A program made the position numbers and the translations under genes. The notes beneath the pieces were generated by a model. It saw only the letters and a list, made by a program, of their open reading frames with translations, did no database searches and was not told where the DNA came from. Shown in pieces: positions 18,283-51,080 of a stretch of DNA of 64,000 bases. The stretch spans positions 37,659-101,658 of the forward strand of contig CAYLHJ010000001.1 of NCBI GenBank assembly GCA_964383705.1. The letters run 5' to 3'. Positions within the stretch are counted from its first letter, which is position 1; each line of letters opens with the position of its first letter. Source of the DNA: an uncultured Candidatus Saccharibacteria bacterium. GTDB taxonomy: Bacteria > Patescibacteriota > Minisyncoccia > Phycocordibacterales > Zambryskibacteraceae.

Positions 18283-19812
18283 CTATCTGGCAAATTCGAT
18301 AATCCTAGATTCTCTTATTATGGTTACCTTTATTTCTCCAGGGTATTTTAATTCATTTTCTATCTTGGTTGCTATGTCTCGGGCTAGTTTTTTGGCTTCT
18401 AAATCAGAGACTTCATTTGGTGTAACGAACACTCTGACCTCTCTGCCGGCTTGCAAAGCATATGATTTTTCAACTCCAGGGAAGTCTGTGGCGATAGCTT
18501 CAAGTTCCTTGAGGCGTTTTAAGTAGTTTTCAACGGTATCTCTTCGCGCCCCCGGTCTGCCACCAGAGATTGCGTCGGCAGTTTGGACGATAATTGATTC
18601 AATCGTCTCATACGGATATTCTCCGTGGTGAGCCTGCATGCCCTTTATAATTTCTTCGCTTGCTCCAAATTTCTGAAGTATCCTTCTGCCAATTTCAACA
18701 TGAGTACCAACAACTTCGTGGTCCACAGCTTTACCAATGTCATGAAGCAGGGCGGCCGCTTTGGCAACAGATACATTGGCGCCAAGTTCCTCTGCGAGCA
18801 TTCTGGCAATATGTGCCATCTCAATTGAGTGTTGAAGTACATTTTGTCCATAACTTGTTCTGAAATGTAGCCTCCCCAGGATTGCAATAATTCTCGGGTC
18901 AAGATTATAGACTCCACACTCATAAACTGCTTGGTCACCCTTTTCTTTTATAATTTTGTTTATTTCAAGTTTTGCTTTTTCGACACTTTCTTCAATTTTG
19001 GCAGGTTGAATTCTGCCGTCGGCTATGAGGTTTTCAAGGGCAACCCTGGCAACTTGTCTTCTAACCGGGTCAAAAGACGATAGGGTGATAGATCCCGGGG
19101 TGTCATCGACAATTACTTCAACACCAGTGGTTCGTTCAAAAGCCTTGATATTTCTACCTTCTTTTCCTATGATCTTTCCTTTGACCTCGTCTGATGGAAT
19201 ATTGACTGTTGTTGTCATAATTTCAGAAGGAACGGCGCTAGCAAGGCGTTGAATTGTTAAAGCTAAAATATTTTTTGCTTTTTCTTCAATTTTTTCATTT
19301 CCCATCATTTCAAGCTTTTGTACACGCGCAATCAAATCTTCTTCCGATTGTTTCTCGACAATTTTCAAAAGTTCTTCACGGGCTTCTTCTTTGCCCATGT
19401 GAGATATCTTTTCGAGAGAGTTTTCTTTCTCAATTGCCAGAGCATCAACTTTTTCCTTAATTGTTTTTACTTCGGCGATGCGAGTCTTTAGTTCTTCGGC
19501 CTCTTTATCAATATCAAGTTGTCTAGTATCAAGAAAATCCTCCTTTTTTATCAGGCGCTCTTCTGTTTTTTTAATTTTTTCTTCCCTCTCTTTTATTTCT
19601 GCCCGTGCGGATTTTATTGTTTCCTCGGCTTTTTTCTCTGCTTCAGTTGTGACTCTTTTTGCTTCTTCTCTGGCCTCGAGCATCATCTGCTTGATATCAA
19701 GTTCCATAGAACCCTTTTTCCCAAGTGAAATAATCCAACGAAGGAAATAACCAAATGCAATGCCTGAAGACGCCGCAAGCGTTACTAAGAGTAGGACAAT
19801 CTTTAATGACAT
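18283..19812 (-). CDS. rny: Ribonuclease Y
   Basis: N-terminal TM, coiled coil, KH domain (KGKIIGKEGRNIKAFERTTG), HD domain (LLHDIGKA). Confidence 0.9.
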   Translation of the reverse strand: MSLKIVLLLVTLAASSGIAFGYFLRWIISLGKKGSMELDIKQMMLEAREEAKRVTTEAEKKAEETIKSARAEIKEREEKIKKTEERLIKKEDFLDTRQLDIDKEAEELKTRIAEVKTIKEKVDALAIEKENSLEKISHMGKEEAREELLKIVEKQSEEDLIARVQKLEMMGNEKIEEKAKNILALTIQRLASAVPSEIMTTTVNIPSDEVKGKIIGKEGRNIKAFERTTGVEVIVDDTPGSITLSSFDPVRRQVARVALENLIADGRIQPAKIEESVEKAKLEINKIIKEKGDQAVYECGVYNLDPRIIAILGRLHFRTSYGQNVLQHSIEMAHIARMLAEELGANVSVAKAAALLHDIGKAVDHEVVGTHVEIGRRILQKFGASEEIIKGMQAHHGEYPYETIESIIVQTADAISGGRPGARRDTVENYLKRLKELEAIATDFPGVEKSYALQAGREVRVFVTPNEVSDLEAKKLARDIATKIENELKYPGEIKVTIIRESRIIEFAR

Positions 19813-20029
19813 GTGGTGTGCGAAAAACTTCGCTTACCGATTTTTACTATAATTCTACGAAATATCTATTTTCCCAAAGAGTCATATAGTGATAGTGGTA
19901 GGAAATGAACTGAAGACGGGCGGTATTATCGTAAGCGGCAGGCGAAATTTTTAATTTAATTTTTAAAAAGTAACACTATGACTATATAAGATTTTTTCTT
20001 TGTTGTAAAGCTGTAGTTTAAATTCGGTT

Positions 20030-20614
20030 CTATGAGTTTTTTGGCTTTAGGATTTTATCTACAATACCGTATTTAACGCCTTCTTCTGCAGTCATAAAGT
20101 AATCTCTATCCACGTCTTTTTCTATTTGTTTTTCGGTCTTTCCTGTATTTTCAGCCATTATTTTATTTAATCGGGCGCGAAGTCGAAGAATGTTTTTCGC
20201 TCTAATTTCAATATCAGTTGCTTGCCCCTGAGCTCCTCCAAGTGGCTGGTGGATCATAATTTCAGAATTCGGAAGTGCAAAACGCTTACCCTTCTTTCCA
20301 GCTGACAAAAGCCATGCTCCTCCAGAAGCAGCCATACCAACACAAATCGTTGAGACATCTGGTTTGATGTGGTTTATTGTGTCTATCATTGCCAAAGTCG
20401 CACTTGCGGAGCCACCTGGAGAGTTTATATATAAATAGATATCTTTTTTTTGATCCTCTGATTCAAGAAATAAAAGTTGCGCAATTATTAGGTTGGCAGT
20501 GTAATCATCAATTTCTCCTCCCATAAAAACTATCCTATCTCGCAGAAGTCGAGAGTATATATCATAAGCTCTTTCACCAAATTGGGATTTCTCTATAACT
20601 GTTGGTATTAACAT
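20030..20614 (-). CDS. clpP: ATP-dependent Clp protease proteolytic subunit
   Basis: [18 protein letters not shown]...[11 protein letters not shown]...MIHQPLGG catalytic triad context. Confidence 0.9.
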
Positions 20615-20698
20615 AAATTATGGTTATTCAATGGTATGTGCGTATACTACTAGAACTATTTTTTTTTGCAAAATTAAATAAACTTTGCACATTTTTTT

Positions 20699-21415
20699 GT
20701 GGCGTATATAGTGAATTCCATGCGGTTACATCGTTTTTTCGTTAATCAAAAAATAGGTAACAATAAAACCATCTCTGTTGTGGACCCTTCTTTGTATAAT
20801 CAATTGAAAAACGTTTTCCGTTTCACTGTTGGTGGCCAAGTTATCCTTTTAGATAACAGCGGATTTGAGTTTCATGCAATGATATCGGATTTTTCTCATG
20901 GTGAGATCAGCTTTGCTGTTGTTTCAAAAAAAGAGAGCAAGAATGTCCCAAGTCGAGAGATGCATCTTTTTTTCTCCCTTCTCAAAAAGGATAATTTCGA
21001 ATGGGTGCTTGAAAAAGGGACAGAGCTTGGAGTAGCGATTTTTACTCCGATTCTTTCAGATAGAAGCGAGAAGAAAGCAATAAATATTGAACGTGCTCAA
21101 AAAATACTTAAGGAATCAAGCGAGCAATCTGAAAGATCTTCCATGCCGATACTAAAACCCCTAATTGATTTGGAAGATGTTTTAAACCAAGATTTTCCCT
21201 GTTTTGCTTTTCATCCAAAAGGGGATACGTTTACTATCGAGCACACTCAAAATTTTTCTCCGCTAGGAGTATTTATTGGGCCAGAAGGAGGTTGGACTGA
21301 TCGAGAAATATTTTTAATGAAAAAAAATAATATCAAGATTTATTCACTAGGGGATAAGGTCTTGAGGGCCGAAACAGCTTCTATCGCGGTCGCTTCTCTC
21401 ATACTTTTGCAATAA
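20699..21415 (+). CDS. rsmE: 16S rRNA (uracil1498-N3)-methyltransferase RsmE
   Basis: MRLHRFFV start motif (probable true start near 20720) plus a C-terminal SPOUT fold. Confidence 0.7.
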   Translation: MAYIVNSMRLHRFFVNQKIGNNKTISVVDPSLYNQLKNVFRFTVGGQVILLDNSGFEFHAMISDFSHGEISFAVVSKKESKNVPSREMHLFFSLLKKDNFEWVLEKGTELGVAIFTPILSDRSEKKAINIERAQKILKESSEQSERSSMPILKPLIDLEDVLNQDFPCFAFHPKGDTFTIEHTQNFSPLGVFIGPEGGWTDREIFLMKKNNIKIYSLGDKVLRAETASIAVASLILLQ

Positions 21416-21416
21416 A

Positions 21417-22478
21417 TTAACTTTGATTTTCTAGAAACTCAAAAACCTTTTCGTTTGTAAGTGCTGTTGCAACATATATCCGCACCTTAAGGGGGTCGGC
21501 GTCCCTATGAATCATGAGGATTTTTTCTGTTTGTCTCTTTATTTCATCACTATCTGGGGTGATTTTTTCTTTCTCAGATATTTTTGAGAGAATTAATTGT
21601 ATTTTAACTTTTTTGTCTGCGGTATTTTTCCATTCATTTCTTAAATCCTCAACTTTTTTATTTATTTTTTTTAAGTATTCATCTAGAGATAATCCAGATC
21701 TTGAAATATCTCCTTCAAATTCTGCTAGCATTTTGTCTAATTCGTTTTCAATAAGAATAGAAGGTATATCAATAGATACGTTTTTAATAATGTTTTCCAT
21801 TATTTCAAGCCGAACCTTTTCTTTCTCTTGGCGATTTTTTTCTTGTGTAAGATTTTCTTTTATCTTGTTTTTTAAATCAGTTATATCTTTAAAGTCACCA
21901 AATTCTTTTATCAATTCGTCCGTAAGGGGGGAGAGGTCTTTTTCTTCGATGGGTTTGTGGTCGTGATTGGTTATATTTTCTTTTTTGTGCAATTCCATGT
22001 GAGCATGGTGTTTCCTGATTTCTAACAAAACATCGTCAATTTCTTTTTCAGAAACCGAAACACTTTCTTTTTTTGGCAAGATTTCTTTGGCTGTTTTTTT
22101 ATAATCTGGAAGTGAAAACGTTGGCAATATTGCAATTACAATACGAAAACCAAGCGGGTTATTTCTTGCAATTTTTGTCAGAGTTATGCTCGGTGAGCCG
22201 ATGACTGCTAATTTATACTCTTCAATAATTTTTATATATTCTTCTTCAAGGGCAGATTTTGCGGCGCTTTCTAATATATGCATTTCTCCGACTTTCTGGA
22301 GAACAATATTTTCTGGTACATGCCCTTTTCTAAATCCCGGCATTTCGATCTCTGTTGCCGCTTTTTTAAGTGTTTCCTCGAATTTTTTATCAAAAAAAGA
22401 TGTTTCAATTTCTCCGATAATTTCTATCTCTGACTGGGGCAGATTGTTAATCTTTATATTACTGTAATTTTTCTTCAT
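21417..22478 (-). CDS. tig: Trigger factor (short form lacking the FKBP PPIase domain)
   Basis: N-terminal ribosome-binding motif MPGFRKGHVP. Only 353 aa, and no FKBP segment is recognisable. Confidence 0.75.
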   Translation of the reverse strand: MKKNYSNIKINNLPQSEIEIIGEIETSFFDKKFEETLKKAATEIEMPGFRKGHVPENIVLQKVGEMHILESAAKSALEEEYIKIIEEYKLAVIGSPSITLTKIARNNPLGFRIVIAILPTFSLPDYKKTAKEILPKKESVSVSEKEIDDVLLEIRKHHAHMELHKKENITNHDHKPIEEKDLSPLTDELIKEFGDFKDITDLKNKIKENLTQEKNRQEKEKVRLEIMENIIKNVSIDIPSILIENELDKMLAEFEGDISRSGLSLDEYLKKINKKVEDLRNEWKNTADKKVKIQLILSKISEKEKITPDSDEIKRQTEKILMIHRDADPLKVRIYVATALTNEKVFEFLENQS

Positions 22479-22569
22479 ATGGCTTTAGAGTCTATAGAAG
22501 ATGAAGTTTTAAATCAAGAATCCCGCAATAGCGGGATTCTTGATTTTCTTAGCTTTTTTATATGGTTCG

Positions 22570-22758
22570 CTAATTTAAAATCAACTCATCAGGATTTTTT
22601 GTTTCTCTGTCTACTCGTTGCCCCAAAAAATATAGTCCTCCTAGAATAATAATTAGGATTATTATAATTATTCCTATAGTAGAACCAATTGACTTCTCTT
22701 CTTCGGGTTTTGGATTGAAACTGTTTTGAGTCGTTGGAGTCTCTTTTTGTGGTTCCAT
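22570..22758 (-). CDS. Small single-TM protein
   Basis: 62 aa ORF with hydrophobic core GIIIIILIIILGGLYFLG. Confidence 0.35.
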   Translation of the reverse strand: MEPQKETPTTQNSFNPKPEEEKSIGSTIGIIIIILIIILGGLYFLGQRVDRETKNPDELILN

Positions 22759-22844
22759 ATGTTTTTATCAATAAATATTGCCACTCTCACTAATTATAGA
22801 TTAAGTCGGAGTATTTTCCATGACTTAATCCATAATTTCAATGT

Positions 22845-23375
22845 TTATTTATTCGTAAACTTTTCTTGATATAACTTCTGACTCTCTTTGAAAGCGTCTA
22901 ATGCTTCTTTTTTGCCGTGGAAACCAGTTATGAGAACTTCTTTGTGTTGGAGTTTCTTATATGTGCTGTAAAAGTGTTCAATCTCTTTTATGGTGTGTTT
23001 ATTGATATCTTTCAAATCTTCAACATGTTCCCATCTTGGGTCATCTATTGGTACGGCAATGATTTTGTCATCTTGAGAGCCAGAATCAATCATGTTCATA
23101 AGGGCGACTGGCCTAACTCGTACCAAAATGCCAGGAGCGAATGGATATGTTGAAAGAATTACGACATCAAGTGGATCGCTGTCATGCCAAAGTGTTTGAG
23201 GTACGAATCCATAATCAAAAGGGAAGTCTTGTGCGCTGTGCATCGCTCTATCAAGGGCGATCAGGCCGGTTTTCTTATCTATTTCGTATTTATTTTTTGA
23301 ACCTTTGCCAATTTCGACAATAACATTAATTTTCTCCTCTATTCCAGAGGAAATATCGTGCCACAAATTCGTCAT
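22845..23375 (-). CDS. ppa: Inorganic pyrophosphatase (family I)
   Basis: VIVEIGKGSKNKYEID...DPLDVVIL. Confidence 0.9.
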   Translation of the reverse strand: MTNLWHDISSGIEEKINVIVEIGKGSKNKYEIDKKTGLIALDRAMHSAQDFPFDYGFVPQTLWHDSDPLDVVILSTYPFAPGILVRVRPVALMNMIDSGSQDDKIIAVPIDDPRWEHVEDLKDINKHTIKEIEHFYSTYKKLQHKEVLITGFHGKKEALDAFKESQKLYQEKFTNK

Positions 23376-23400
23376 AGAAACTCAATATTAATTAAAACTT

Positions 23401-24573
23401 TTAATTCTTTTCACTCAAATTATTTTCGGATGAGGCAACTTCTGATTGAGCGTCGGCTTGTGCCAAGTTCTCTCCTTTTGTTGATTGAATATCAATTTTC
23501 CAACCAGTTAATTTTGCCGCGAGACGAACATTTTGCCCACCACGACCAATAGCTAGAGATTGCTGGTCTTCTGACACTTCAACTTTCGCTTCACTTGATT
23601 CTTCGTTTATTGTCACAGAAAGAATCTTTGCTGGAGAGAGCGCGTCTTCAATAAATTTCTTTGGATCAGCGGACCACTCAATGATATCAATCTTTTCTCC
23701 ACCCAATTCGCTCATAACTGTTGAGACTCTGACTCCACGTTGTCCAACCATTGATCCGACTGGATCAACATGATCATCTTTAGAGAATGCGGCTATTTTA
23801 GAACGATACCCCGCTTCTCTGGCAATTGCTTTAATTTCTACAACACCATTTGCAATTTCTGGTGTTTCTTGTTCAAAAAGTTTTTCTAATAGTTTTGGGT
23901 GTGAACGTGAAAGGCGAAGAAAGATACCTTTTGGACTTTCTTCTACCCTATAAAGATAAGCTCTAATTCGCTCACCTTGGCTATATCGCTCTCCCGGAAT
24001 CTGTTCTTCGTAAGGAAGAAGTCCTGTTGCTCTGCCCATATCCACGAAGATATTTCCTCTCTCAATTCTTTGGACGGTGCCAGAAACAATTTCTCCCTCA
24101 CGTTCTCCAAATTCTCCAAGCACTGAGACTTTTTCTGCTTCCCTTATTTTCTGCATAATGACCTGCTTTGCGGTTTGTGAAGCAATTCTTCCGAAATCAC
24201 TCTTATGTTCAAGGGGGAATATTATTTCTTCATCGAGCTCAACCCCTTTCTTAATTTTTTTTGCGTCTTCTATCCACATATGATGCTCAGGGTTGAAGAA
24301 TACTCTCAAATCATCCGCAGCCCTTTCTGATTCTTGGCCTTCAGGTACATCAATAACACGTGTGTCATCCACAACAATCTTTACTTGAAAGAAATCTGTC
24401 TTTCCAGAATTTATATCAAATTTTGCTCTTACAATTTGCCCGCGTTTCCCATATTCTTTTTTATACGCAGTTGCAAGGGCCATTTCTATAGCTTCAATGA
24501 TTTTTTCTTTTGGTATACCGCGCTCTTGCTCAAGCTGGTCGAGTACGGAATTAATAACTTTTAAATCAAACAT
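23401..24573 (-). CDS. nusA: Transcription termination/antitermination factor NusA
   Basis: N-terminal RNAP-binding domain followed by S1 and KH domains (GQRGVRVSTVMSELGGEKIDII). Confidence 0.9.
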   Translation of the reverse strand: MFDLKVINSVLDQLEQERGIPKEKIIEAIEMALATAYKKEYGKRGQIVRAKFDINSGKTDFFQVKIVVDDTRVIDVPEGQESERAADDLRVFFNPEHHMWIEDAKKIKKGVELDEEIIFPLEHKSDFGRIASQTAKQVIMQKIREAEKVSVLGEFGEREGEIVSGTVQRIERGNIFVDMGRATGLLPYEEQIPGERYSQGERIRAYLYRVEESPKGIFLRLSRSHPKLLEKLFEQETPEIANGVVEIKAIAREAGYRSKIAAFSKDDHVDPVGSMVGQRGVRVSTVMSELGGEKIDIIEWSADPKKFIEDALSPAKILSVTINEESSEAKVEVSEDQQSLAIGRGGQNVRLAAKLTGWKIDIQSTKGENLAQADAQSEVASSENNLSEKN

Positions 24574-24681
24574 AATTTTTATTTTTTAAAAAAATGAGCC
24601 CGCCTTTTGGGCGAACTTCTAAGCAATAAATAATAACAGGGTAAAGTATACACCTATTTTTACTTTTGTCAATTGTTTAAC

Positions 24682-24718
24682 AAAAACCCCGCAACAAGTT
24701 CTCACTCATTGCGGGGCT
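24682..24718 (-). terminator. Intrinsic terminator for the metalloprotease gene (minus strand)
   Basis: ccccgcaa ... ttgcgggg hairpin; on the minus strand it is followed by a T-run. Confidence 0.5.
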
Positions 24719-24779
24719 CGTAATACATATATTCCCAAGTCACAATCTGAAGCTCCGTCATCACCCGAGTTCATTCGGT

Positions 24780-26081
24780 TTATCTGAAGACGGTTGGGGT
24801 GCTATTGTTTTGCTCACCGAGTAGCGCATTGACGAAGCCAAATGTCGCACCATTTTCCATCTGGATTCGTCTTACTTGCTGGAAGAGTTGGATGTAAGCG
24901 ACGTCCTTCTTGGTGGTTGTTTGCGAGATATTGTAGTTGTACGGACTCCCCGCAGGACAACCAAACATCACAGTAAGCCATCCGCAGCTGTGACCAAAGC
25001 CCAGACCATGAATGAGCTCGTGCTGGATGATCGTGGAGTTGCGAAGGGCGAGAGTTCCTATGAGAGAGATCCCCCCAAAGTCGAAATAAAGATCGCCGTC
25101 GACGAGTTGAGCCGCGCCAAAGCCGGTCTTTGATTGACTTGGGTTGATTGTTGCAAGGAATCCTCTATCGGGGGCTAATTCCGTGATCATTGCTGGCCTA
25201 AAGAGATCAATCCCGAAACTTGCCTCCAGATCAGCAACCCCACCATTCCAAAAAGCAGAGGAGTCAGAGGCCGAGATCGAGTCTGGCCAGCTTCTTCGGT
25301 CAAAGGCAAGCGGTATTGGGAAGTCTTTCCAAATTCCACCACTCTGAAGATTGGGGATGAAGAGGAAACTATCCCAAGCCACTTGCGTTTCAGCTATCTG
25401 AATATCAACCTCTATGCCCGAGAACAGTCCAGCTTGGATTACCCATTTCTTGGGTATAGAGACGAAGGTTATCTTGGTAGTCAGGGCTGTTAGCCGAGGA
25501 ATGCTCGCCTCAGATCGATAGTACGAGTTGTTTGGGCTGATGACTACCACATCAAGGAAATTCCCCATCTTGTTTCTTACAGAGATTGGGGCGGAGATGT
25601 GTCCTAGGCCTGAATTGTCAAGCAGAAGGGAATCTCCCCATGAACCAGAGGACATGATTACCTTGAAGCCTGACACATTGTCATAGCCCTGGGGGCTGGC
25701 CCCGTAGACCTGAACCACCAAATTCGGCGGTGGAACAGCCCTCATTGTGGCTGTTGCGGACTTAACTCCTCCGTCACCGGTGCAGGTTACAGAGAAAGTT
25801 GAATCTTTGTTCAAGCTCGAGGTGAAATTGTAACTGCCAGACAGCGATATACTGTCTTTCCAAGAGCTTGTGCAAGACGAGGCGTTTTCAGAAGACCAAG
25901 ACACGGTCTTCAGAGCGGTGTCACCAATTTCAACTGAAGTAGGTGAGATGGAGACACTTACAGATGGCGCTACTGGCGGTGGTGGAGGGGGAGGAGGCGG
26001 GGGCGGTGATGGTCCGGTTCCGTCTTTGCCTGAACATGCAACAATACCAATCGCCAGGATAAGCATTCTGTGATAACGCAT
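24780..26081 (-). CDS. Lipoprotein zinc metalloprotease, metzincin-type (HExxHxxGxxH), with poly-proline linker
   Basis: Lipobox LILAIGIVAC|SG, then a PPPPPPPPPPPPV linker. C-terminal motif QHELIHGLGFGHS. The gene is visibly much GC-richer (about 50-55%) than its flanks. Confidence 0.65.
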   Translation of the reverse strand: MRYHRMLILAIGIVACSGKDGTGPSPPPPPPPPPPPVAPSVSVSISPTSVEIGDTALKTVSWSSENASSCTSSWKDSISLSGSYNFTSSLNKDSTFSVTCTGDGGVKSATATMRAVPPPNLVVQVYGASPQGYDNVSGFKVIMSSGSWGDSLLLDNSGLGHISAPISVRNKMGNFLDVVVISPNNSYYRSEASIPRLTALTTKITFVSIPKKWVIQAGLFSGIEVDIQIAETQVAWDSFLFIPNLQSGGIWKDFPIPLAFDRRSWPDSISASDSSAFWNGGVADLEASFGIDLFRPAMITELAPDRGFLATINPSQSKTGFGAAQLVDGDLYFDFGGISLIGTLALRNSTIIQHELIHGLGFGHSCGWLTVMFGCPAGSPYNYNISQTTTKKDVAYIQLFQQVRRIQMENGATFGFVNALLGEQNNSTPTVFR

Positions 26082-26252
26082 GGGAAACCTCTTTGGTTAA
26101 TATATGTATGTGTTAAAGAGCGGAGTAAGTTTGTCTAAAAAAATTATAAAATTTAAAACGGATGTATGTCAATGTTATCCACAACTTGTTTGGAATATTT
26201 TCATGAATTTGAGGATTATTTTATGTTATTATTAGGAGTCTAAAGGGGTTTA

Positions 26253-26792
26253 TTGTTCTTTTATCTTTATTTTATTTTTAATATGGAGCCACAAAATCAA
26301 ATTAAGTCAACACCTAAGGGCGTTTCTCTTATCATCATCGCCTTCATCGGTCTTTTGGTCATTGCCTATTTAATGAGCGTTTCTTTCAAGAATGATGAAG
26401 TTCGAGATGAGAAACAATATACGAAAGAAAATGTTGAGGTCAGCAAGGTAGATCTTGCTACAGCCCAAGGTGATGGAAAAATTCCAAGCGGTTTTCCTAA
26501 GGATATTCCTGTTGAAGTAAATGGTATTTTTGAGAGCCTTTCGAGTAATTATAAAGATAGAGGAGTAATTTTATATAAGCTCAGTTATTCCAGCGGACTT
26601 TCATTGGACGAAGCTTACGATTTATATGCTCAATATCTTTCTAAGGCCAAATACACTCTAGATGGTGGGACAAAGACAGAAAATACCAGATCTCTTTTTG
26701 GTAGAAGAGGAGATGATAGTTTTTCGGTAGTTATTGCAAAAGCTGTGGATGGATTAACAACGGTTCAAATTTCTTATACAGATAGACAATAA
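26253..26792 (+). CDS. Hypothetical N-terminally anchored protein
   Basis: TM segment VSLIIIAFIGLLVIAYLM; likely true start MEPQNQ at 26283. Confidence 0.45.
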   Translation: MFFYLYFIFNMEPQNQIKSTPKGVSLIIIAFIGLLVIAYLMSVSFKNDEVRDEKQYTKENVEVSKVDLATAQGDGKIPSGFPKDIPVEVNGIFESLSSNYKDRGVILYKLSYSSGLSLDEAYDLYAQYLSKAKYTLDGGTKTENTRSLFGRRGDDSFSVVIAKAVDGLTTVQISYTDRQ

Positions 26793-26805
26793 TTAAATAA
26801 ATTAC

Positions 26806-28602
26806 ATGTCAACCAATTTTAATTTCATGAGTATTAAAAAATTATTATTTTTTTCGGCCTTTTCTCTCTTTATCTTTTTTGTTGGAACTAATGGTTCTTT
26901 CGCAGCACAAAGCGGTGGTGGTACTCCTGGTGGTTGCGCCATTAACTTCTTTAATCAAGTTTCTGGTGTAACCCCGGGTGGGCAACAATTTGAAGGCAGA
27001 TATCTTCGATGGGATATGACTACTGGTTGCACCTATGCAACTATCACTGTTCCTGGTTCGAATGCTCCAATAAATAATGTAAGCAATATTGGCCAAGCGG
27101 TAATAGGTCTCCCAGGTAATATTTATAATGGGAACTATGTTTTGACGGCTCAAGACAGTTCGGGTAATCAAGTAACAGCAAGCGTATACTATGGAGCCAA
27201 ATCAATCGCAGCTTGTGATATTAGCTCTTGGAATGTTTTCACTGGCCAACCAAACCCTTCAGTTTCCGTTGTTCAGTGGACAGTTTCAGGTTGTGCTGGG
27301 GGATATGATATGTATTTGAATGGTGCCCCCGTATCTGGAGGTTCGGCCAACATGTCTTCTGGGGTTAATACTTTAACTCTTTATCAGAGGTCGGTTGGAC
27401 CATCATTTCTCACTGACACAGTAAGTTTTAATTTTAATCCAACATCTGGTGGTGGCGGTGCTGGTTATGGGAGTATAACAGTTGTACTTTCGGGAATTGC
27501 TGATCCTAGCGGTGTTGATTGGATTGTTGGGCCTGGTGGTTATACAGGAAATGGTAGCGCAAGTACTGTAATTAATATCCCAAATGCGGATATTTCTCCG
27601 ACTACTGGTACAACTTTTGATATATCTGGCCTAACCTATCCGGGTTGTTCTTACGTTGTTACTAATAGTGATGGTGGAGGTTCTTCACTTCTTATGTATC
27701 AATCAAACGATAAAGCTTTTTATGTTGATTATAGTAATTGTGGCGGGTCTTCTCTTACTGTAGATATAAAAGCGGACGGTCTAGACGGTCCAATGTCTAT
27801 TTCCTCAGGGCAATCAGTTAATTTAACTTGGGCTTCAACTGGCGCCACGTCGTGCTCTGGAAGCAATTTTTCAACTGGTGGTGCAACAAACAATATTACA
27901 GGAGTTTCATCTGGCGCACTGACGTCAACGAAAATTTTTCAGGTTGATTGTACAGACGGTGTTTCAACTGTCTCAGATAATGTAAAAGTTCTGGTTGCCT
28001 TCGGTTCATCTTTTGACTATTCATTATCAAATTCAGGTGATGTCTATGTAACCCAAGGTTCAAGTAATGTTCAAGTCCAATCAATTATTGATAAAAATCT
28101 CGTCACTGGTACTTCTCAACCAGTTACTTTATCTGCCTCTGGATTGCCGGCCGGTGTAACTTTGACTTATGCAAATCAAAATTGCTCTCCTACCTGTGCT
28201 TCGACTTTGACTTTTACAATTAGCCCAACCGCCCCAACAGGAACTCATAGCGTAACGATACAAGGTGATGGTGGTGGGGTTGTTAGAACTACATCTTTTG
28301 ATTTGATTATTAGCCCTGCTCCAACAATATCTGTTACCTGTACTCCATCTCCTTCTCCAGCTTCTGTTGGTCAATTGGTTACATGGGATGTAACAGTTTC
28401 TGGTGGAACTGCTCCGTATTCATATGCCTGGTCTGGAACTGATTTTGCTGGAACTCCAGCAACAGATCCGTATACCTTCACTTATCAAACTACGGGAGCA
28501 AAAGTCGCCACAGTTACTGTGACAGACAGTGTCGGAGTACAGGGATCTTGTGCGGCGACAGTTCTTCAGGTTAAGGTAAAACCAACATACGAAGAATTTT
28601 AA
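26806..28602 (+). CDS. Large secreted Gly/Thr/Ser-rich protein with multiple Cys pairs (adhesin-like beta-repeat protein)
   Basis: Sec signal (LFFSAFSLFIFFVGTNGSFA). Low-complexity G/T/S-rich sequence with a recurring Cys-containing repeat pattern. Immediately upstream of pilB. Confidence 0.55.
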   Translation: MSTNFNFMSIKKLLFFSAFSLFIFFVGTNGSFAAQSGGGTPGGCAINFFNQVSGVTPGGQQFEGRYLRWDMTTGCTYATITVPGSNAPINNVSNIGQAVIGLPGNIYNGNYVLTAQDSSGNQVTASVYYGAKSIAACDISSWNVFTGQPNPSVSVVQWTVSGCAGGYDMYLNGAPVSGGSANMSSGVNTLTLYQRSVGPSFLTDTVSFNFNPTSGGGGAGYGSITVVLSGIADPSGVDWIVGPGGYTGNGSASTVINIPNADISPTTGTTFDISGLTYPGCSYVVTNSDGGGSSLLMYQSNDKAFYVDYSNCGGSSLTVDIKADGLDGPMSISSGQSVNLTWASTGATSCSGSNFSTGGATNNITGVSSGALTSTKIFQVDCTDGVSTVSDNVKVLVAFGSSFDYSLSNSGDVYVTQGSSNVQVQSIIDKNLVTGTSQPVTLSASGLPAGVTLTYANQNCSPTCASTLTFTISPTAPTGTHSVTIQGDGGGVVRTTSFDLIISPAPTISVTCTPSPSPASVGQLVTWDVTVSGGTAPYSYAWSGTDFAGTPATDPYTFTYQTTGAKVATVTVTDSVGVQGSCAATVLQVKVKPTYEEF

Positions 28603-28627
28603 GAATATAGAAAATAATTACTAAAAT

Positions 28628-28658
28628 AAAAAATCCTCAATGCTGAGGATTTTTTATT
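28628..28658 (+). terminator. Intrinsic terminator
   Basis: aaaaaatcctca atgc tgaggatttttt. Confidence 0.55.
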
Positions 28659-28692
28659 TTGTCTTTGTTACAATAAAAGTAATAGAATTCTC

Positions 28693-30453
28693 ATGCACAT
28701 TGAAGAAAAACAACTTAAAGAATTCATTCTTGATTCGGGTTTAGTCTCTCGCGCAGATTTAACTAAGGCAGAAAAAGAATCAGCTGAAAGTGGGATTAGT
28801 GTTGGTAAAATTTTAGTTAATAAAGGATCTCTCACGGAAGATGACCTTCGTCGCATGCAAGCCTATATTCTGGGTATCCCATTTGTGGATTTGAAAGGTC
28901 TTAGAATTGATTTTGAAGTACTCTCTCTTATTCCAGAGCCGATTGCAAGAAATAATAATATTATTGCGTTTAGAAAAGTTGGTGACACATTGGAAGTTGC
29001 AATGCTTGATACCGAGGACCTTGCGGCAATTGATTTTATTCGTAAGAAAACCGGATTAAAAATACTCCCGCGCCTTACTGACACAGAATCGGTTAAAAGC
29101 GCTCTTTTGAATTATCAGAAAAGTCTTAAAGCAGAGTTCGGAGACATAATTCAAAAAGAAGCAAATACCCTTAAGTCAATATCTGACAAAGTAGGAGAGG
29201 ATATGGTGTCGGAAAGCGAACTTAAAAAACTCGCAGAAGATGTTCCAGTAGTAAGAATAGTCGACACTTTGTTGAAGCATGCAATTATTCAAAATGCCTC
29301 TGATATTCATATTGAACCAATGGAAAACCAGGTGCTCGTTAGATATCGTATCGACGGGCTTCTTCATGATGCCATGGTTTTACCAAAAAATGTTGCTAAT
29401 GGTATAACTGCTCGAATCAAGGTTCTGTCAAATCTTAAACTAGATGAAAAGAGAATTCCTCAAGATGGTCGCTTTAAGATAGATATGAATGAAGAGAAAG
29501 TTTCATTTCGTATCTCAACTCTTCCTGTCTATTACGGAGAAAAGATTGTGATGAGGCTTCTAAGAGAGGGGGCATCAGGATTTACTCTTGAAGGCCTGGG
29601 TTTCCATGGCGATGGATTAGAAAAACTTCATAAAGCGACACGTCTTACAACTGGAATGATTCTTACTACTGGCCCCACTGGTTCAGGTAAGACTACCACT
29701 CTTTATACAATGCTAGATATTGTAAACCAACCCGATGTTAATATTTCTACGATTGAAGACCCAATTGAGTATCAAATGAAGAGGGTCAATCAAACACAAG
29801 TAAAACCAGAAATTGGTTTTACTTTCGCTACGGGGCTTCGCACTTTAGTTCGACAAGATCCAGATATTATTATGGTTGGAGAAATCCGCGATACCGAGAC
29901 CGCCGCCCTTGCCGTGAATGCTGCATTGACTGGTCATCTTGTCTTATCAACCTTGCATACTAATTCTGCTGCTGGGACAATTGCTCGTCTTATCGATATG
30001 AAGATAGAGCCGTTTCTTCTCACCTCAACCCTTTCTGTGATTGTTGCTCAACGTCTCATTCGACGATTGGCCGATTCAAAGGAAAAATATTTTTTAACTA
30101 AGGAAGAGCTTGGTCAGTTGGAAAAGATTGTTGATCTTGACCTAATCTTAAGAACCCTAAAGGAGGAAAAAATTGTCGATAAAGGAGCGTCGTGGGAGAA
30201 AATGCCAATGTATAAACCAAAGCCCGGAGGAGATACAGAGGATGGATATAGAAGTCGTATTGGTATCCATGAAGTTTTACGTGTTACGCCAGCAATCAAA
30301 GATTTAATTATGAAAAACGCAACAACTCAAGAAGTAGAAGATTGTGCTAAAAAAGAAGGTATGCTCACAATGCTTGAAGACGGCGTCTTTAAGGCTGTAC
30401 AAGGTATTACTACGATTGAAGAGGTGTTGCGTGTGGTCTCATCCGACGAATAA
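28693..30453 (+). CDS. pilB: Type IV pilus assembly ATPase PilB (GspE family)
   Basis: N-terminal GSPII domain; Walker A LTTGPTGSGKTTTLYTML; Asp and His boxes. Confidence 0.9.
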   Translation: MHIEEKQLKEFILDSGLVSRADLTKAEKESAESGISVGKILVNKGSLTEDDLRRMQAYILGIPFVDLKGLRIDFEVLSLIPEPIARNNNIIAFRKVGDTLEVAMLDTEDLAAIDFIRKKTGLKILPRLTDTESVKSALLNYQKSLKAEFGDIIQKEANTLKSISDKVGEDMVSESELKKLAEDVPVVRIVDTLLKHAIIQNASDIHIEPMENQVLVRYRIDGLLHDAMVLPKNVANGITARIKVLSNLKLDEKRIPQDGRFKIDMNEEKVSFRISTLPVYYGEKIVMRLLREGASGFTLEGLGFHGDGLEKLHKATRLTTGMILTTGPTGSGKTTTLYTMLDIVNQPDVNISTIEDPIEYQMKRVNQTQVKPEIGFTFATGLRTLVRQDPDIIMVGEIRDTETAALAVNAALTGHLVLSTLHTNSAAGTIARLIDMKIEPFLLTSTLSVIVAQRLIRRLADSKEKYFLTKEELGQLEKIVDLDLILRTLKEEKIVDKGASWEKMPMYKPKPGGDTEDGYRSRIGIHEVLRVTPAIKDLIMKNATTQEVEDCAKKEGMLTMLEDGVFKAVQGITTIEEVLRVVSSDE

Positions 30454-30454
30454 C

Positions 30455-31672
30455 ATGACAATTTTCAGATATAAAACTTTAAATAAAGAAGGGGTGGTGA
30501 ACGAGGATACAATAGAAGCCCCAGATAGGTTTGCGGTATATCGAAAAATAAAAGAAACTGGGGACAGTGTTATTTATGTAAATGAAGTCCGGAAGCATTC
30601 TTTTTTTTCTTTTGAAAAATTTTCTAATTTTTTCTCTAGAGTAAAGATTCAAGAAAAAATTATATTTGCTAGAAACTTGGCTTCAATGATAGAGGCAGGT
30701 CTCTCTGTTACTCGAGCACTTGCTGTAATGGAAAAGCAGACAAAAAATAAGAAACTCAAAGTAGTTTTGGAGGAATTGAATGACGATATAAGCCGGGGCA
30801 AGAGTCTTTCAGAATCAATGAGAACTAAGAGTGATGTTTTTTCACCACTCTTTATTTCCATGGTTAAGGCGGGAGAAGAGAGTGGAAATCTGGCCGGATC
30901 TTTAAAAGTGGTTTCTATCCAAATGGAGAAAGCTTACACTTTAACAAAGAAGGTCCGTGGGGCGCTCATGTACCCAGCAGTTATCGTAAGCATAATGATT
31001 ATTATCGGGATTCTCATGCTTGTCTTTATGGTTCCAACACTTACAGCAACATTTGAAGGTTTAGGGGTAAAATTACCAGCAAGTACTCGCCTCGTTATCT
31101 CTGTTTCTGATTTTTTGAGGAATAATTATCTTTTGACGATTGTCGGCATAGTTATTTTGGTAATTTCTTTTATTTTTATCTATAGAAGCGCTCCAGGGAA
31201 AAAGTTTTTTAATTTTATTGCAATTCATTTTCCTATATTCGGAAGTATTGTCAGAGAGATTAATGCGGCTCGTACCGCGAGGACCCTTTCTTCTTTATTA
31301 TCTTCTGGTGTGGATATTATATATGCGATAGGAGTCACTCAAGAGGTTCTTCAAAATTTCTATTACAAAGAGGTTTTAGCAAAAGCTCAGAAGAATATTG
31401 AAAAAGGTGAAACAATGTCTCTTGCATTCATAGAGAATGAAAAATTATATCCAATTTTTGTTGGTGAGATGATGAGTGTTGGAGAGGAGACTGGTAAGAT
31501 GGCGGATATGTTGATGGGGGTGGCGACTTTTTATGAAGATGAAGTAGATCAAAAGACGAAAGATATGTCTACATTAATCGAACCTTTTCTTATGGTGATG
31601 ATGGGTCTTGCTGTTGGGTTTTTTGCAATTTCAATGTTGGCTCCTACGTATTCTTTGGTTGATGCGATATAA
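30455..31672 (+). CDS. pilC: Type IV pilus platform protein PilC (GspF family)
   Basis: Two GspF repeats with polytopic TM segments. Start ATG at 30455 directly after the pilB stop (the provided ORF 30344.. is an upstream in-frame extension). Confidence 0.85.
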   Translation: MTIFRYKTLNKEGVVNEDTIEAPDRFAVYRKIKETGDSVIYVNEVRKHSFFSFEKFSNFFSRVKIQEKIIFARNLASMIEAGLSVTRALAVMEKQTKNKKLKVVLEELNDDISRGKSLSESMRTKSDVFSPLFISMVKAGEESGNLAGSLKVVSIQMEKAYTLTKKVRGALMYPAVIVSIMIIIGILMLVFMVPTLTATFEGLGVKLPASTRLVISVSDFLRNNYLLTIVGIVILVISFIFIYRSAPGKKFFNFIAIHFPIFGSIVREINAARTARTLSSLLSSGVDIIYAIGVTQEVLQNFYYKEVLAKAQKNIEKGETMSLAFIENEKLYPIFVGEMMSVGEETGKMADMLMGVATFYEDEVDQKTKDMSTLIEPFLMVMMGLAVGFFAISMLAPTYSLVDAI

Positions 31673-31679
31673 TTCCTGC

Positions 31680-33518
31680 ATGAGGAGAATTTTTGTTTCT
31701 CTTTTTTCACTTTCACGTTCTATAAAAAAACAGGACGGTTTTAGTTTAATAGAAATTATAGTTGGAGCAGCAATTTTTGCTATTATCGCGGTATCTGTCT
31801 ACCAGAGTTACGCTAGTCTCATTGCTCTAGTTTCTGCTTCTCGAGTAAAAATCACAGCAACAGATCTAATTAATGAGCAATTTGAACTTATACGAAACTT
31901 ACCTTATGACAAGGTTGGCATTGCGGGGGGAATTCCTGATGGGGTTTTGGAGAATAGTGAGATTTTTGTTCGCGATAATGGCACTTTTACTATCGTAAGG
32001 ACTGTGCGAAATATCGATGACCCGTTTGACGGCGTTATAGGGGGTTCTCCAAATGATTTATCTCCAGCTGATTACAAATTAGTGGAGATTGAGGTTAATT
32101 GTGATGTATGTAAAAACTTTGTTGAAATGTCGGTGACGAGTCGTGTTTCCCCAAAAAATTTAGAAACTGCATCAACAAATGGTGCGCTTTTTATTCGTGT
32201 TTTTGATGCAAATGGTAATCCAGTCCCGAATGCGAATGTTCACGTCGAAAATAATCTTGCAACTACATCAATCGTTATAGATGACGTCACCGATAACCAA
32301 GGAATGCTTCAGATTGTTGACGCTCCGCCAGGAATAAATGCATATGAAATCACAGTCTCAAAATCAGGGTATACAACTGATGAGACATACACCGCTTCTG
32401 TGGGTAATCCAAATCCAACAAAACCGCATGCGACGGTATTACTTCAGCAAGTAACACAAGTCTCTTTTGTCATAGATAAGGTAAGTACGGTAAATGTTTC
32501 AACTCTTACTGACGATTGTACTGCGGTAGGGAGTATCCCTTTTTCGATGACTGGTGCAAAACTTATTGGTGCTAATCCTGATGTCTATAAATACAGTGCA
32601 AATCATTTGACTAATTCAGGCGGATTAAAAACACTTTCTCAAGTTGAATGGGACACATATAATCTTACGGTAAGTGATCCAACATACCATTTGGCTGGTG
32701 TGAATCCACTTTTACCAGTTTCTATTCTTCCCGATGCTGTACAAGACATACAACTAATTCTTACTACCAAAAACCCATCCCACTTATTAGTAACGGTTAA
32801 AGACAATAGCAACGGCCTCCCACTTTCTGGTGCAGATGTCACTCTTACCAAGACGGGCTATACAGATGTGCTTATAACTGGGCGGGGGTTTTTAAAACAA
32901 AGTGATTGGTCTGGTGGACCGGGTCAAGATGACTTTGTTGATAAAACTCGATATAACAGCTCTGATGGGAATATAGATATAAATAATCCTGTTGGTGAAA
33001 TAAAACTGACAAATATTTTCGGTGACTATGCTCCAAGTGGAGTCCTATCCTCTTCTATATTTGATACTGGGACAACTACGAATTTCAACCAAATTATTTG
33101 GAATCCGGCAAGCCAGCCTCAGGCGACTGGCCCAGACTCGGTCCTTTTCCAATTCGCAAGTGATCCGCTAAATAATGCAAGCACTACATGGGAGTTTCTT
33201 GGTCCAGATGGAACGGGTTTAACTTTTTATACTATTGCTGATACGAACATTAATAGTATTCACAATGGAGACAGATATTTCCGCTACAAGTCTTATCTTG
33301 CGACGGCGAGTTCGACTTTGACGCCAAATATCGCTGAAGTTGCTTTCACCTTTACTTCAGAATGTACTCCGCCAGGTCAGGTCTTATTTTCTGGTCTTTC
33401 TGGCGGGACATATACACTTTCTGTCGATAAGTCGGGGTATGGTAGTTATCAAAATCAAATTATCATCCCTAATGATGTTTCTTTTCTTCAGCATGAGGTG
33501 GATTTAGTTACCCAATAA
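31680..33518 (+). CDS. Giant prepilin-like protein (class III signal, N-terminal methylation motif) of about 612 aa
   Basis: RSIKKQDG|FSLIEIIVGAAIFAIIAVSV matches the prepilin cleavage/methylation consensus (G|FxxxE). A long beta-rich C-terminal domain follows. Confidence 0.7.
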   Translation: MRRIFVSLFSLSRSIKKQDGFSLIEIIVGAAIFAIIAVSVYQSYASLIALVSASRVKITATDLINEQFELIRNLPYDKVGIAGGIPDGVLENSEIFVRDNGTFTIVRTVRNIDDPFDGVIGGSPNDLSPADYKLVEIEVNCDVCKNFVEMSVTSRVSPKNLETASTNGALFIRVFDANGNPVPNANVHVENNLATTSIVIDDVTDNQGMLQIVDAPPGINAYEITVSKSGYTTDETYTASVGNPNPTKPHATVLLQQVTQVSFVIDKVSTVNVSTLTDDCTAVGSIPFSMTGAKLIGANPDVYKYSANHLTNSGGLKTLSQVEWDTYNLTVSDPTYHLAGVNPLLPVSILPDAVQDIQLILTTKNPSHLLVTVKDNSNGLPLSGADVTLTKTGYTDVLITGRGFLKQSDWSGGPGQDDFVDKTRYNSSDGNIDINNPVGEIKLTNIFGDYAPSGVLSSSIFDTGTTTNFNQIIWNPASQPQATGPDSVLFQFASDPLNNASTTWEFLGPDGTGLTFYTIADTNINSIHNGDRYFRYKSYLATASSTLTPNIAEVAFTFTSECTPPGQVLFSGLSGGTYTLSVDKSGYGSYQNQIIIPNDVSFLQHEVDLVTQ

Positions 33519-40716: not shown

Positions 40717-42194
40717 ATCGTAATCGTATCCCTTTTTTAATTTCAGGTTTTATTTTTGGTGTTTTAATCTCTTCATTTATTAGTATTGGGCAGAGGGTTG
40801 GCTACGGGTTATTTTTTGTCCATCTTTTTATCTTAGTTTTCTTGTTTTTTGCAAGAAATGTTTCTGTTAATCAACCGATTGCTGTTGTTTTATTGTTTCT
40901 CATGACCTTTTCTATGGGGATTATTCGTTTTGCAAAATATAATGAGGTGAATCTCGATCCAATTTTCGAATCTGCTGTTGGTAAAGAAATCACCCTTCAG
41001 TCTATTGTCTTAAAAGAACCAGAAGAAAAAGTTTCTTACAGACAATACATTGTTAAGGCACCAAAAGGCGATGCCAAGGTTCTTGTTAGGGGGGAAATTT
41101 ATCCAGTATTTAATTACGGAGATGAAGTTAAATTTACAGGAAGATTAGAAAAACCAAAAAACTTCGAAACTGATCAAGGAAAAGATTTTGATTACACTTC
41201 TTATTTAAAGAAAGACAAAGTTTATTACATTATTTCCTTTGCTAAAGGGGAGCTTGTTTCAGAAGGTAGTGGTAATTGGTTTAGAGAAAAACTTTTTACT
41301 CTAAAAAATAATTTTGTTAAGAATATAAATAATTTAATACCAGACCCTGAATCTTCTTTACTTGCGGGTATTTTACTTGGGTTAGAAGACTCTCTTGGGA
41401 ATGATTTAGAGGATGCTTTTATAAAAACTGGTGTAGTGCATATTGTTGTTTTGTCTGGTTACAACATTACTATCGTTGCTGAATCGCTTATAAAGTTTTT
41501 TTCTTTTGTTCCTAAGAATTTTGCTTTGGCAGGTGGTGCTTTTGGTATTATTTTATTTTCCCTAATGGTTGGCGGGTCTCCATCTGTAGTGCGCGCATCA
41601 CTTATGGCGATTCTTGTTCTTTTGGCGCGTGGTACAGGGCGAAAATATGATATTGGTCGAGCTTTGCTTATTGTTGGATTTGTAATGATTTTTTTGAATC
41701 CAAATATTCTTATCTTTGATATATCATTTCAACTCTCGTTTCTTTCTACCATCGCGCTTATTTGGATTTCTCCCATTATTAAAAATAAATTTAAAATAAT
41801 TCCAGAGCGTTTTGCTATTAGAGAAATTTTTTCTGCTACACTTGCCACTCAGTTTTTCGTCTTGCCACTACTTCTTTATAAGATGGGAGAATTTTCTTTA
41901 GTCGGACTTCCGGTAAATTTACTCATTCTTGGTTTTATCCCCGCGATTATGTTTTTTGGTTTTGTCGCGGGGTCAATAGGATTTGTTTCTTTATTAATCG
42001 CTACACCTTTTGCATTTCTCTCATACTTACTACTTGCTTATATATTAAAAATCGTTGATATTTTTTCAGCATTTTCTTTTGCTTCATTTCATATACCACA
42101 TTTTTCTCTTTCACTTATGATTGTATTTTATCTTTCTTATGGGTATTTATTTTTTAGATATTTTAAAAATAGAAAAGGCGCGTTACAAGAGTAA
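40692..42194 (+). CDS. comEC: ComEC/Rec2 competence channel, N-terminal (DUF4131 plus competence domain) part
   Basis: Polytopic membrane protein with GGSPSVVRASLMAILVLLARGTGRKYD competence-domain signature. Confidence 0.8.
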   Translation: MEKSISFLNRNRIPFLISGFIFGVLISSFISIGQRVGYGLFFVHLFILVFLFFARNVSVNQPIAVVLLFLMTFSMGIIRFAKYNEVNLDPIFESAVGKEITLQSIVLKEPEEKVSYRQYIVKAPKGDAKVLVRGEIYPVFNYGDEVKFTGRLEKPKNFETDQGKDFDYTSYLKKDKVYYIISFAKGELVSEGSGNWFREKLFTLKNNFVKNINNLIPDPESSLLAGILLGLEDSLGNDLEDAFIKTGVVHIVVLSGYNITIVAESLIKFFSFVPKNFALAGGAFGIILFSLMVGGSPSVVRASLMAILVLLARGTGRKYDIGRALLIVGFVMIFLNPNILIFDISFQLSFLSTIALIWISPIIKNKFKIIPERFAIREIFSATLATQFFVLPLLLYKMGEFSLVGLPVNLLILGFIPAIMFFGFVAGSIGFVSLLIATPFAFLSYLLLAYILKIVDIFSAFSFASFHIPHFSLSLMIVFYLSYGYLFFRYFKNRKGALQE

Positions 42195-42207
42195 CGCGCC
42201 TTGTCAT
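42177..42207. terminator. Hairpin at the comEC 3' end / junction with the higher-GC block
   Basis: aggcgcgttac aagag taacgcgcct inverted repeat. Confidence 0.4.
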
Positions 42208-42211
42208 GATT

Positions 42212-42499: not shown

Positions 42500-42542
42500 A
42501 AATCCCTCCGTTCAAGGTTTTGTTTGGTTGGGTGGCGATAAC

Positions 42543-45302: not shown

Positions 45303-45345
45303 ACCGCTACCTATATGCTAGCAGGGTAGCGGTCTACCGCCTCAA
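45303..45345. terminator. Bidirectional terminator hairpin
   Basis: ccgctacc tatatgctagca gggtagcgg. Confidence 0.4.
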
Positions 45346-50556: not shown

Positions 50557-50601
50557 TAAGTTAGATTCGGTTAAGTCCACAGGCCTTTTCAGGAGAGAAA
50601 A

Positions 50602-50985: not shown

Positions 50986-50988
50986 CTT

Positions 50989-51026: not shown

Positions 51027-51080
51027 TTGATGTATTTTAATTTATGGCGAGTTCCAAAGGTCAGGATACTTTACGATTAT

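Follow-up and report, generated by a model that had tools for sequence, protein, structure and literature searches.

The DNA analyzed here, which we call the window, is a stretch of 64,000 nucleotides from contig CAYLHJ010000001.1 (assembly GCA_964383705.1), and our subject is a gene on its minus strand, at positions 24780 to 26081, that encodes a predicted lipoprotein of 433 amino acids with the signature of the metzincin clan of zinc peptidases. The open reading frame (ORF) is complete, and an identical protein occurs in public assemblies. As the same gene with the same flanks was found in independent assemblies, L001 and L002 (98% amino acid identity for L002), we rejected an assembly chimera or artefact as its origin. 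The gene is flanked by a type-IV-pilus-like operon (p179, a 598-amino-acid surface protein called p598, T2SSE, T2SSF and further genes) and by nusA-ppa-tig-clpP; no mobile genes lie beside it in the window. NusA placed the window in the Patescibacteria, within the Paceibacteria/Parcubacteria group, with a best match of 81% among GTDB species representatives. Many third-party annotation (TPA) metagenome-assembled genomes (MAGs) titled 'uncultured Candidatus Saccharibacteria' (L005, L006, L010 and others) have NusA proteins and gene orders as in records titled Parcubacteria, Paceibacteria, Taylorbacteria or Zambryskibacteria, and the Saccharibacteria titles look like generic mislabels. Our overall explanation, to which we assign a probability of roughly 70%, is that the gene encodes a surface zinc endopeptidase of a new metzincin family, which was gained once near the base of a Paceibacteria subclade and has been inherited vertically since.

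Expression signals surround the ORF on the same strand. A candidate sigma-70-type promoter (TTGACA-18-TATAAT, 26143 to 26172), identified by its match to the consensus at 12 of 12 positions, precedes a Shine-Dalgarno sequence, AAAGAGG (26088 to 26094), located 6 nucleotides 5' of the ATG. Past the stop codon by 61 nucleotides lies an intrinsic terminator (24679 to 24719) with a 16-bp stem, a 4-nucleotide GAGA loop and a U-tract; its calculated ΔG of −25.3 kcal/mol bears out the statement, in a preliminary description of this DNA, that the gene has a strong terminator of its own. The adjacent nusA has its own near-consensus promoter, TTGACA-16-TATACT (24597 to 24672, minus strand), and a hairpin that resembles a terminator and has a T-run (24617 to 24597) separates this promoter from the nusA start codon; it may be a leader attenuator.

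The window protein matched no Pfam or NCBIfam model. A word-indexed homology search returned only six weak hits, which made the protein an apparent orphan, and the same kind of search with the family alignment as a profile found only three proteins. The orphan status was overturned by an exhaustive search, which gave 2481 hits; most of these covered only an Ig-like module (residues 34-125), and about 35 of the top 150 were homologues, many of them full-length, that spanned the middle and C-terminal regions with 28-38% identity. In public databases the relatives are annotated as 'hypothetical protein' or 'Ig-like domain-containing protein', and we found nothing in the literature on this family or on metzincins in Candidate Phyla Radiation (CPR) bacteria. 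Alignment of the homologues revealed a shared layout: after a lipobox and often a proline-rich linker come N-terminal modules that vary (Ig, FN3 or Big_2), then a beta-sandwich in the middle of the protein and a domain at the C-terminus with the motifs FPxxxAFDR, DSxxFW, DLFRP and HExxHxLGFGH[TS]CxWxxxM...C...DVAY.

The metzincin motif HExxHxxGxxH, already noticed in the preliminary description, is present in the window protein as HELIHGLGFGH (residues 354-364, positions 24990 to 25022, minus strand), and its key residues are nearly invariant among 50 family members: H354 and H364 in all 50, H358 in 49, E355 in 48 and G361 in 47. The C-terminal-helix residue D393 is equally well kept (49/50). 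Eight residues past the third His lies the Met of the Met-turn, M372, which aligned to the Met-turn of matrix metalloproteinase (MMP) 12; this position is Met in 39 members and Leu in 9. A Cys pair, C366 and C375, brackets it (segment C366...M372...C375, 24957 to 24986, minus strand) and is probably joined in a disulfide; each Cys occurs in 36 of the 50 members. The residue after the third His is Ser365 in the window protein (HSCGWLTVM), Thr in 34 members and Ser in 6. When the family profile was compared with the PDB, the best matches were MMP catalytic domains (MMP-12, expect value E = 6e-4; matrilysin, 3e-3), the alignment extending from the zinc motif over the Met-turn to the C-terminal helix. 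Among 38 members, sub-threshold Pfam matches were obtained to Peptidase_M10 (12/38, best E 5.6e-5), Reprolysin_5 (8/38) and CarboxypepD_reg (8/38), with a weak Astacin match in just one; the copy from Gemmatirosa scored 20.3 bits against PF00413, for which the cut-off is 24. By motif, Met-turn and modelled fold the protein is a metzincin (clan MA(M)); judged from its sequence, it falls outside the matrixin, astacin and serralysin groups and is best described as belonging to a separate, unannotated family within the clan. The conserved residues point to zinc-dependent endopeptidase activity.

The protein begins with a predicted signal peptide and lipobox (MRYHRMLILAIGIVAC; 26034 to 26081, as for all features that follow on the minus strand), which consist of a charged n-region, MRYHR, a hydrophobic h-region and the sequence IVAC. 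The lipobox, MRYHRMLILAIGIVAC|SG, conforms to the pattern [LVI][ASTVI][GAS]C, and Cys16, the predicted lipidation site, aligns with a Cys in most full-length homologues, so the earlier lipobox assignment held up. A run of prolines encoded by mixed CCN codons follows (25974 to 26006), likely a rigid stalk or linker; it comprises 11 residues (26-36) and not the 12 first counted, and Pro-rich linkers also occur in the L115, L117, L121 and L124 orthologues. Residues 39-116 (25734 to 25967) form an Ig-like beta-sandwich module with Cys70 and Cys100, predicted with pLDDT (predicted local distance difference test) above 90 and seen by homology search to be repeated across more than 2000 large surface proteins. 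The module's signature is SWxSxNAxSC...TxxLxCxGxGG; it is present in up to 18 copies per protein (P0012, P0013 and others) and is without a Pfam model. That the module had been copied from the neighboring surface protein p598 was rejected (E = 0.06). Residues 120-226 (25404 to 25724) form a transthyretin-like, or carboxypeptidase-regulatory-like, beta-sandwich, and residues 250-425 (24807 to 25334) the metzincin catalytic domain, the C-terminus of the protein lying about 60 residues past the Met-turn. The only cysteines are C16, C70, C100, C366 and C375. With a 5-sequence alignment AlphaFold2 gave a confident model for the Ig domain only; for the whole protein we used a 38-sequence alignment, which gave pLDDT 90.5 and a predicted template modelling score (pTM) of 0.84, and in this model the catalytic domain has the mixed beta-sheet, active-site helix and C-terminal helix of the metzincin fold.

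We propose that the protein would be exported by the Sec pathway and then lipidated at Cys16, which would anchor it in the outer leaflet of the cytoplasmic membrane, with the 11-proline stalk and the Ig-like and transthyretin-like domains spacing the catalytic domain from the membrane. Zinc would be held by H354, H358 and H364, E355 would act as the general base, M372 would form the Met-turn beneath the metal, and the enzyme would be a metzincin without an MMP-type pro-domain or cysteine switch. Lipidation, surface display and activity are in each case predictions from the sequence.

The gene stands out from its surroundings in composition, as the preliminary description had reported. Its G+C content (GC) is 0.505 and its GC at third codon positions (GC3) 0.523, relative to a window GC of 0.385, intergenic flanks of 0.28 and 0.37, and a median GC3 of 0.296 in the other 62 ORFs (robust z = 6.3). 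The GC-rich island (24701 to 26100, mean GC 0.50) coincides with the ORF, and the elevation ends at the ORF boundaries. For almost all amino acids codon choice is shifted toward G/C-ending codons, as with ATC (53% vs 16%), TTC (65% vs 22%) and, for leucine, CTG (25% vs 3% in the host) and TTA (3% vs 25%); usage clearly differs from that of the ribosomal-protein genes of the window, and the codon likelihood is the third-lowest of the 63 ORFs. GC1 and GC2 are raised too, and the excess is even along the gene and across conservation classes. Ordinary translational selection was rejected as the cause, since A/T-ending codons are the ones used in ribosomal-protein genes and conserved residues show no concentration of the GC3 excess. 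A pull of high GC1 and GC2 on GC3 was also rejected, because p598 has a GC2 of 0.54 yet a GC3 of 0.245, as was diversification driven by a diversity-generating retroelement or repeats, for the window contains no repeats of the gene elsewhere and no ORF for a reverse transcriptase with a YxDD motif.

We then compared the position of the gene among related genomes. A family member occupies exactly the same slot in six lineages, represented by the window and L002, L005, L115 (P0018), L117 (P0017), L121 and L122 (P0014), and L124 (P0045). In five outgroups (L007, L012, L016, L023 and L025) the site is empty, with T2SSE abutting nusA at a distance of 168-765 bp, and among 80 GTDB nusA loci a family member was present in L005 only. 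The metzincin-nusA interval is a zone of variable cargo (L005:4146-5402, L117:9498-10286, L124:6882-8313 and L115:7704-9166): L005 has an M16 peptidase there, L117 and L124 have DsbA, L124 also has a Y1 (IS200/IS605-type) transposase, and L115 has an acetyltransferase and a 214-amino-acid ORF.

The gene appears to have been inherited together with its neighbors. The NusA and Tig trees have the form ((window, L121), L115, (L124, (L117, L005))); a six-taxon metzincin tree recovers {L005, L117, L124} and {L005, L117}, and the nearest metzincin to that of the window is from L121, its sister in NusA and Tig. Identities between species are 81-87% for NusA, 64-77% for Ppa, 46-60% for Tig, 32-46% for p17x and 28-38% for the metzincin. 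The long-term distances of metzincin, Tig and NusA stand in the ratio 6.2 : 3.6 : 1, and their short-term ratios of nonsynonymous to synonymous divergence (dN/dS) in the ratio 4.7 : 3 : 1. Between species, fourfold-site identity is near the level expected by chance, so that synonymous sites are essentially saturated; the pair L005-L124 retains most fourfold-site signal in the host genes (0.165) and also in the metzincin (0.156). Relative to the L002 strain, the window metzincin has a dN/dS of 0.14 and a synonymous divergence (dS) of 0.06, and for the same strain pair dS is 0.078 in nusA, 0.091 in ppa and 0.106 in p179. Over the region 18283-33518 strain dS is a mosaic, with 0.02 in clpP, 0.47 in rsmE, 0.26 in tig, 0.06-0.11 from ppa and nusA through the metzincin to p179, and 0.39-0.41 in p598 and T2SSE, which points to recombination blocks in the population. 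The picture suggests an old gain specific to this clade, with insertion between the pilus operon and nusA and vertical inheritance thereafter. We propose a single gain, at or close to the base of a small Paceibacteria subclade of the Patescibacteria/CPR, after which the gene has passed vertically as an independent transcription unit that encodes a fast-evolving surface protein under purifying selection. GC3 of the metzincin is 0.45-0.54 in all six lineages, relative to neighbor means of 0.30-0.39 (an excess of +0.10 to +0.22), and given the six-lineage synteny and vertical inheritance we take the GC-rich codons to have characterized the gene in this clade for a long time and not to signal recent transfer.

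As for the source, a scan of Joint Genome Institute (JGI) metagenomes, built on a 6-sequence alignment, found the family almost wholly on soil contigs of 57-78% GC, in which the gene has the GC of its flanks. The labelled members all belong to the Gemmatimonadota (Gemmatirosa kalamazoonensis plasmid 2, a Gemmatimonadaceae MAG and a Longimicrobiaceae MAG) and none to the Actinobacteria, and on that basis we rejected the actinobacterial donor proposed at the outset. The source was likely a pool of homologues in high-GC soil bacteria whose labelled members are Gemmatimonadota, and the original transfer may have been from there into the CPR. In a neighbor-joining (NJ) tree of 50 sequences the Gemmatimonadota-type copies form one clade and all CPR copies fall in a second group, in which P0019/L118, P0072/L116 and P0032/L123, all from high-GC contigs, are placed as well. 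These three are GC-poorer than their flanks (GC3 of 0.66 vs 0.75, 0.65 vs 0.83 and 0.52 vs 0.72, respectively), which hints at transfer out of a lower-GC lineage. The CPR-type members on contigs of 56-67% GC are located in L118-L120 (the gene at L118:3137-4480), L123 (692-2308) and L116 (8001-9311); P0019 has as neighbors an IS3 transposase, a BsuBI/Eco57I restriction-modification (R-M) system and Fic, and P0032 has RadC and DUF2958. Of the best homologues of the window protein (34-38% identity over the middle and catalytic domains), those with checkable hosts come from related Paceibacteria of 42-44% GC, except for P0019 (35% identity), which lies on a contig of 62% GC; the expectation that the nearest relatives would be high-GC bacteria was thus largely contradicted. 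A foreign origin as such is plausible if it is old, as the family is most abundant and most diverse in high-GC soil bacteria and outgroups are without the gene; a recent import received no support.

Several observations weigh against a single old gain of a metzincin gene. The window protein scores under every Pfam peptidase threshold. Bootstrap values in the family tree are weak, with 62% for the subclade that contains the window gene, and the NJ tree of 50 sequences places the L005 copy beside P0072 and P0091 and not with other CPR copies; this grouping, with its weak bootstrap, leaves room for a replacement at the slot. The CPR group is sister to the Gemmatimonadota-type clade and not nested within it, which together with the low support makes the donor and direction of the ancient transfer uncertain. 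Finally, amelioration would be expected after a single old gain, but GC3 remains at 0.45-0.54.

We considered two explanations for this persistent excess, to which we give equal weight and neither of which we would put at even odds. The excess could be the fading relic of a single gain at the root from an extremely GC-rich donor (GC3 of about 0.95), with amelioration still incomplete. Homologues on 70-78% GC contigs (L085-L087, L092 and L099), which are kin of the labelled Gemmatimonadota copies, do have a GC3 of 0.93-0.97, and the rise in GC1 and GC2 and the uniformity of the excess along the gene and across conservation classes are what a passive relic predicts. The residual fourfold-site signal is small but nonzero, and taking one lineage's compositional memory as the square root of the pairwise signal gives about 0.15-0.25 per lineage, or up to about 0.3 within 2 standard errors (SE). 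For the window lineage itself the pooled pairwise signal in host genes is 0.00-0.04, which corresponds to a memory of about 0.15-0.2; a donor GC3 of 0.95 acquired at the root would then have decayed to at most about 0.40-0.43, relative to the 0.52 observed, although 2 SE still allow about 0.5. Extrapolation from dN/dS, which puts pairwise dS at about 6, would imply more than 99% amelioration, and the window has the lowest host GC3 of the lineages but nearly the highest metzincin GC3. Because memory decays as the square root, the relic model is only strained by these figures despite the saturation, and active maintenance is equally viable.

Alternatively, the excess could be actively maintained by a gene-specific force, either GC-biased gene conversion, through frequent recombination at a surface-antigen locus and possibly uptake of homologous DNA by the adjacent pilus/competence machinery, or selection for genome-rare codons throughout an exported multidomain protein. 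Such a force would account for an excess that persists in six lineages at saturated synonymous sites, for fourfold sites that are nearly unbiased (about 25% per base) in every lineage when those of host genes are 65-73% A+T, and for an elevation that stops at the ORF boundaries; the population does recombine, as the mosaic of dS blocks attests, and relatives in high-GC hosts are shifted the opposite way, toward about 50-65% GC3. On the other hand, metzincin dS is among the lowest locally, with no direct sign of elevated recombination, p598 lies in a high-dS block yet has a low GC3, ribosomal-protein genes prefer A/T-ending codons, and the excess shows no focus at conserved residues. We offer only tentatively, as a somewhat doubtful proposal, that a gene-specific force has held this vertically inherited protease gene at about 50% GC in six AT-rich CPR lineages. 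Candidates for that force are recurrent, recombination-driven GC-biased conversion, possibly with homologous DNA of GC-rich (Gemmatimonadota-like) partners via the adjacent pilus/competence genes, or selection for genome-rare codons along the exported protein. On contigs of 56-67% GC the relatives have a lower GC than their flanks, and two of them have mobile-element genes alongside, which is consistent with two-way exchange.

The window contains further GC-rich islets. One (50601-52100, GC about 0.47-0.51) separates fusA from tuf, two genes that are usually neighbors, and holds three small paralogous ORFs on the plus strand (50602-50985, 51044-51508 and about 51615-52007). Each has a hydrophobic segment at its N-terminus, the C-terminus is shared (...HYAAKFLLQK, ...HYAAKFLLQR and ...RKFVLQK), and there were no Pfam hits. 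Another, with atypical codons (42101-43200), has a ComEC-like membrane gene on one side and a superoxide dismutase gene on the other and comprises a 95-amino-acid Zn-ribbon-like ORF (42212-42499) and a 227-amino-acid ORF (42543-43226), both on the minus strand; a third (45311-45631), also atypical in its codons, is a 106-amino-acid ORF that matched Nfu_N weakly and has a GC3 of 0.62. The last two show that the metzincin gene is not the sole compositional outlier in this genome.

The slot might instead be a hotspot at which unrelated family alleles (xenologues) are swapped repeatedly, each copy being a separate and fairly recent import. The grouping of the L005 copy with P0072, from a 67% GC host, and P0091 rather than with the window copy would fit this, as would the variable cargo (M16 peptidase, DsbA, Y1 transposase, acetyltransferase) between metzincin and nusA and the IS3, R-M, RadC and DUF2958 genes that adjoin P0019 and P0032. 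We consider it unlikely, because the six-taxon metzincin tree and distances follow NusA and Tig, the long-term ratios of 6.2 : 3.6 : 1 match the short-term 4.7 : 3 : 1, host genes and metzincin agree in the fourfold-site signal of L005-L124, and the conflicting node is poorly supported. Very unlikely, in our view, is that the protein has lost catalysis and serves as an adhesin or scaffold that just keeps a metzincin-like fold: two adhesin-like beta-sandwich domains do precede the catalytic domain, a pro-domain or known latency mechanism is not present, and the public annotations of relatives include Ig-like domains, but in the window protein the three zinc ligands, catalytic Glu, Gly, Met-turn and helix-C Asp are all preserved, as they are in 78-100% of 50 members, and the gene is under purifying selection. 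Least credible is the recent horizontal acquisition from a high-GC actinobacterial host or neighbor, still unameliorated, that the preliminary description proposed: a GC3 of 0.52 vs about 0.30 with atypical codon usage and a family abundant on 57-78% GC soil contigs could suggest it, but orthologues in synteny are present in six lineages with NusA identities of just 81-87%, the gene tree is congruent with the species tree and its rates with those of NusA and Tig, between-strain dS (0.06) equals that of the flanks (0.08-0.11), no mobile genes adjoin it in the window, the nearest homologues are just 34-38% identical and mostly from related low-GC Paceibacteria where this could be checked, and the labelled high-GC relatives are Gemmatimonadota.

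With the surface endopeptidase gained once and inherited vertically as our preferred reading, the evolutionary interpretation first given was largely wrong in timing and donor, and the observation at the level of the sequence is confirmed, as is the assignment as a lipoprotein metzincin, now narrowed to a new family of the clan. The results define an unannotated metzincin family with a clear motif signature and a confident structural model, common to Gemmatimonadota and a small clade of Paceibacteria. For CPR biology, a conserved protease, predicted to be tethered at the surface and encoded beside a pilus operon, is a candidate for a role in contacts with partner cells or in the scavenging of proteins, with its lipidation and cell-surface function as predictions. 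For studies of genome evolution the gene is a warning, in that its atypical GC and codon usage do not mark recent transfer. The persistent GC anomaly is a real, if modestly interesting, puzzle, and if the excess is actively maintained this would be a tractable locus for gene-specific forces on composition in tiny genomes.

Among known systems, the matrixins (MEROPS M10A, PF00413; human MMP-12 and MMP-7; bacterial MMP-like enzymes such as karilysin of Tannerella forsythia are also known) are represented in our comparison by MMP-12 and MMP-7. They resemble the window protein in the HExxHxxGxxH motif and the Ser or Thr that follows its third His, in the Met-turn Met eight residues past that His, and in the conserved Asp of the C-terminal helix, the family's DVAY aligning to DDIRGIQ of the MMPs. 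The window protein differs from them in that it has no PF00413 hit at threshold (its relatives reaching only sub-threshold matches, in 12 of 38), lacks the PRCGxPD cysteine-switch pro-peptide, with no pro-domain in the model, and carries the conserved Cys pair around the Met-turn and the family's own N-terminal motifs FPxxxAFDR, DSxxFW and DLFRP; moreover, its catalytic domain comes after Ig-like and transthyretin-like domains and a predicted lipid anchor. It differs from the astacins (M12A) in having Ser365 where astacin has Glu and in lacking both RxDRD and the Tyr zinc ligand of the SxMHY Met-turn, and from the serralysins (M10B) in that Ser or Thr, not Pro, follows the third His and there is no RTX beta-roll. 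In contrast, the Gemmatimonadota lipoproteins (from Gemmatirosa kalamazoonensis plasmid 2, MEJ7810425.1 and HET6230775.1) are true homologues, with 27-32% identity, the same CarboxypepD_reg-like and catalytic core, the same motifs and a lipobox. They are encoded in genomes of 62-78% GC with the gene at the GC of its flanks, have an N-terminal Big_2 module or none in place of the SWxSxNAxSC Ig-like module, and form a separate clade in the tree.

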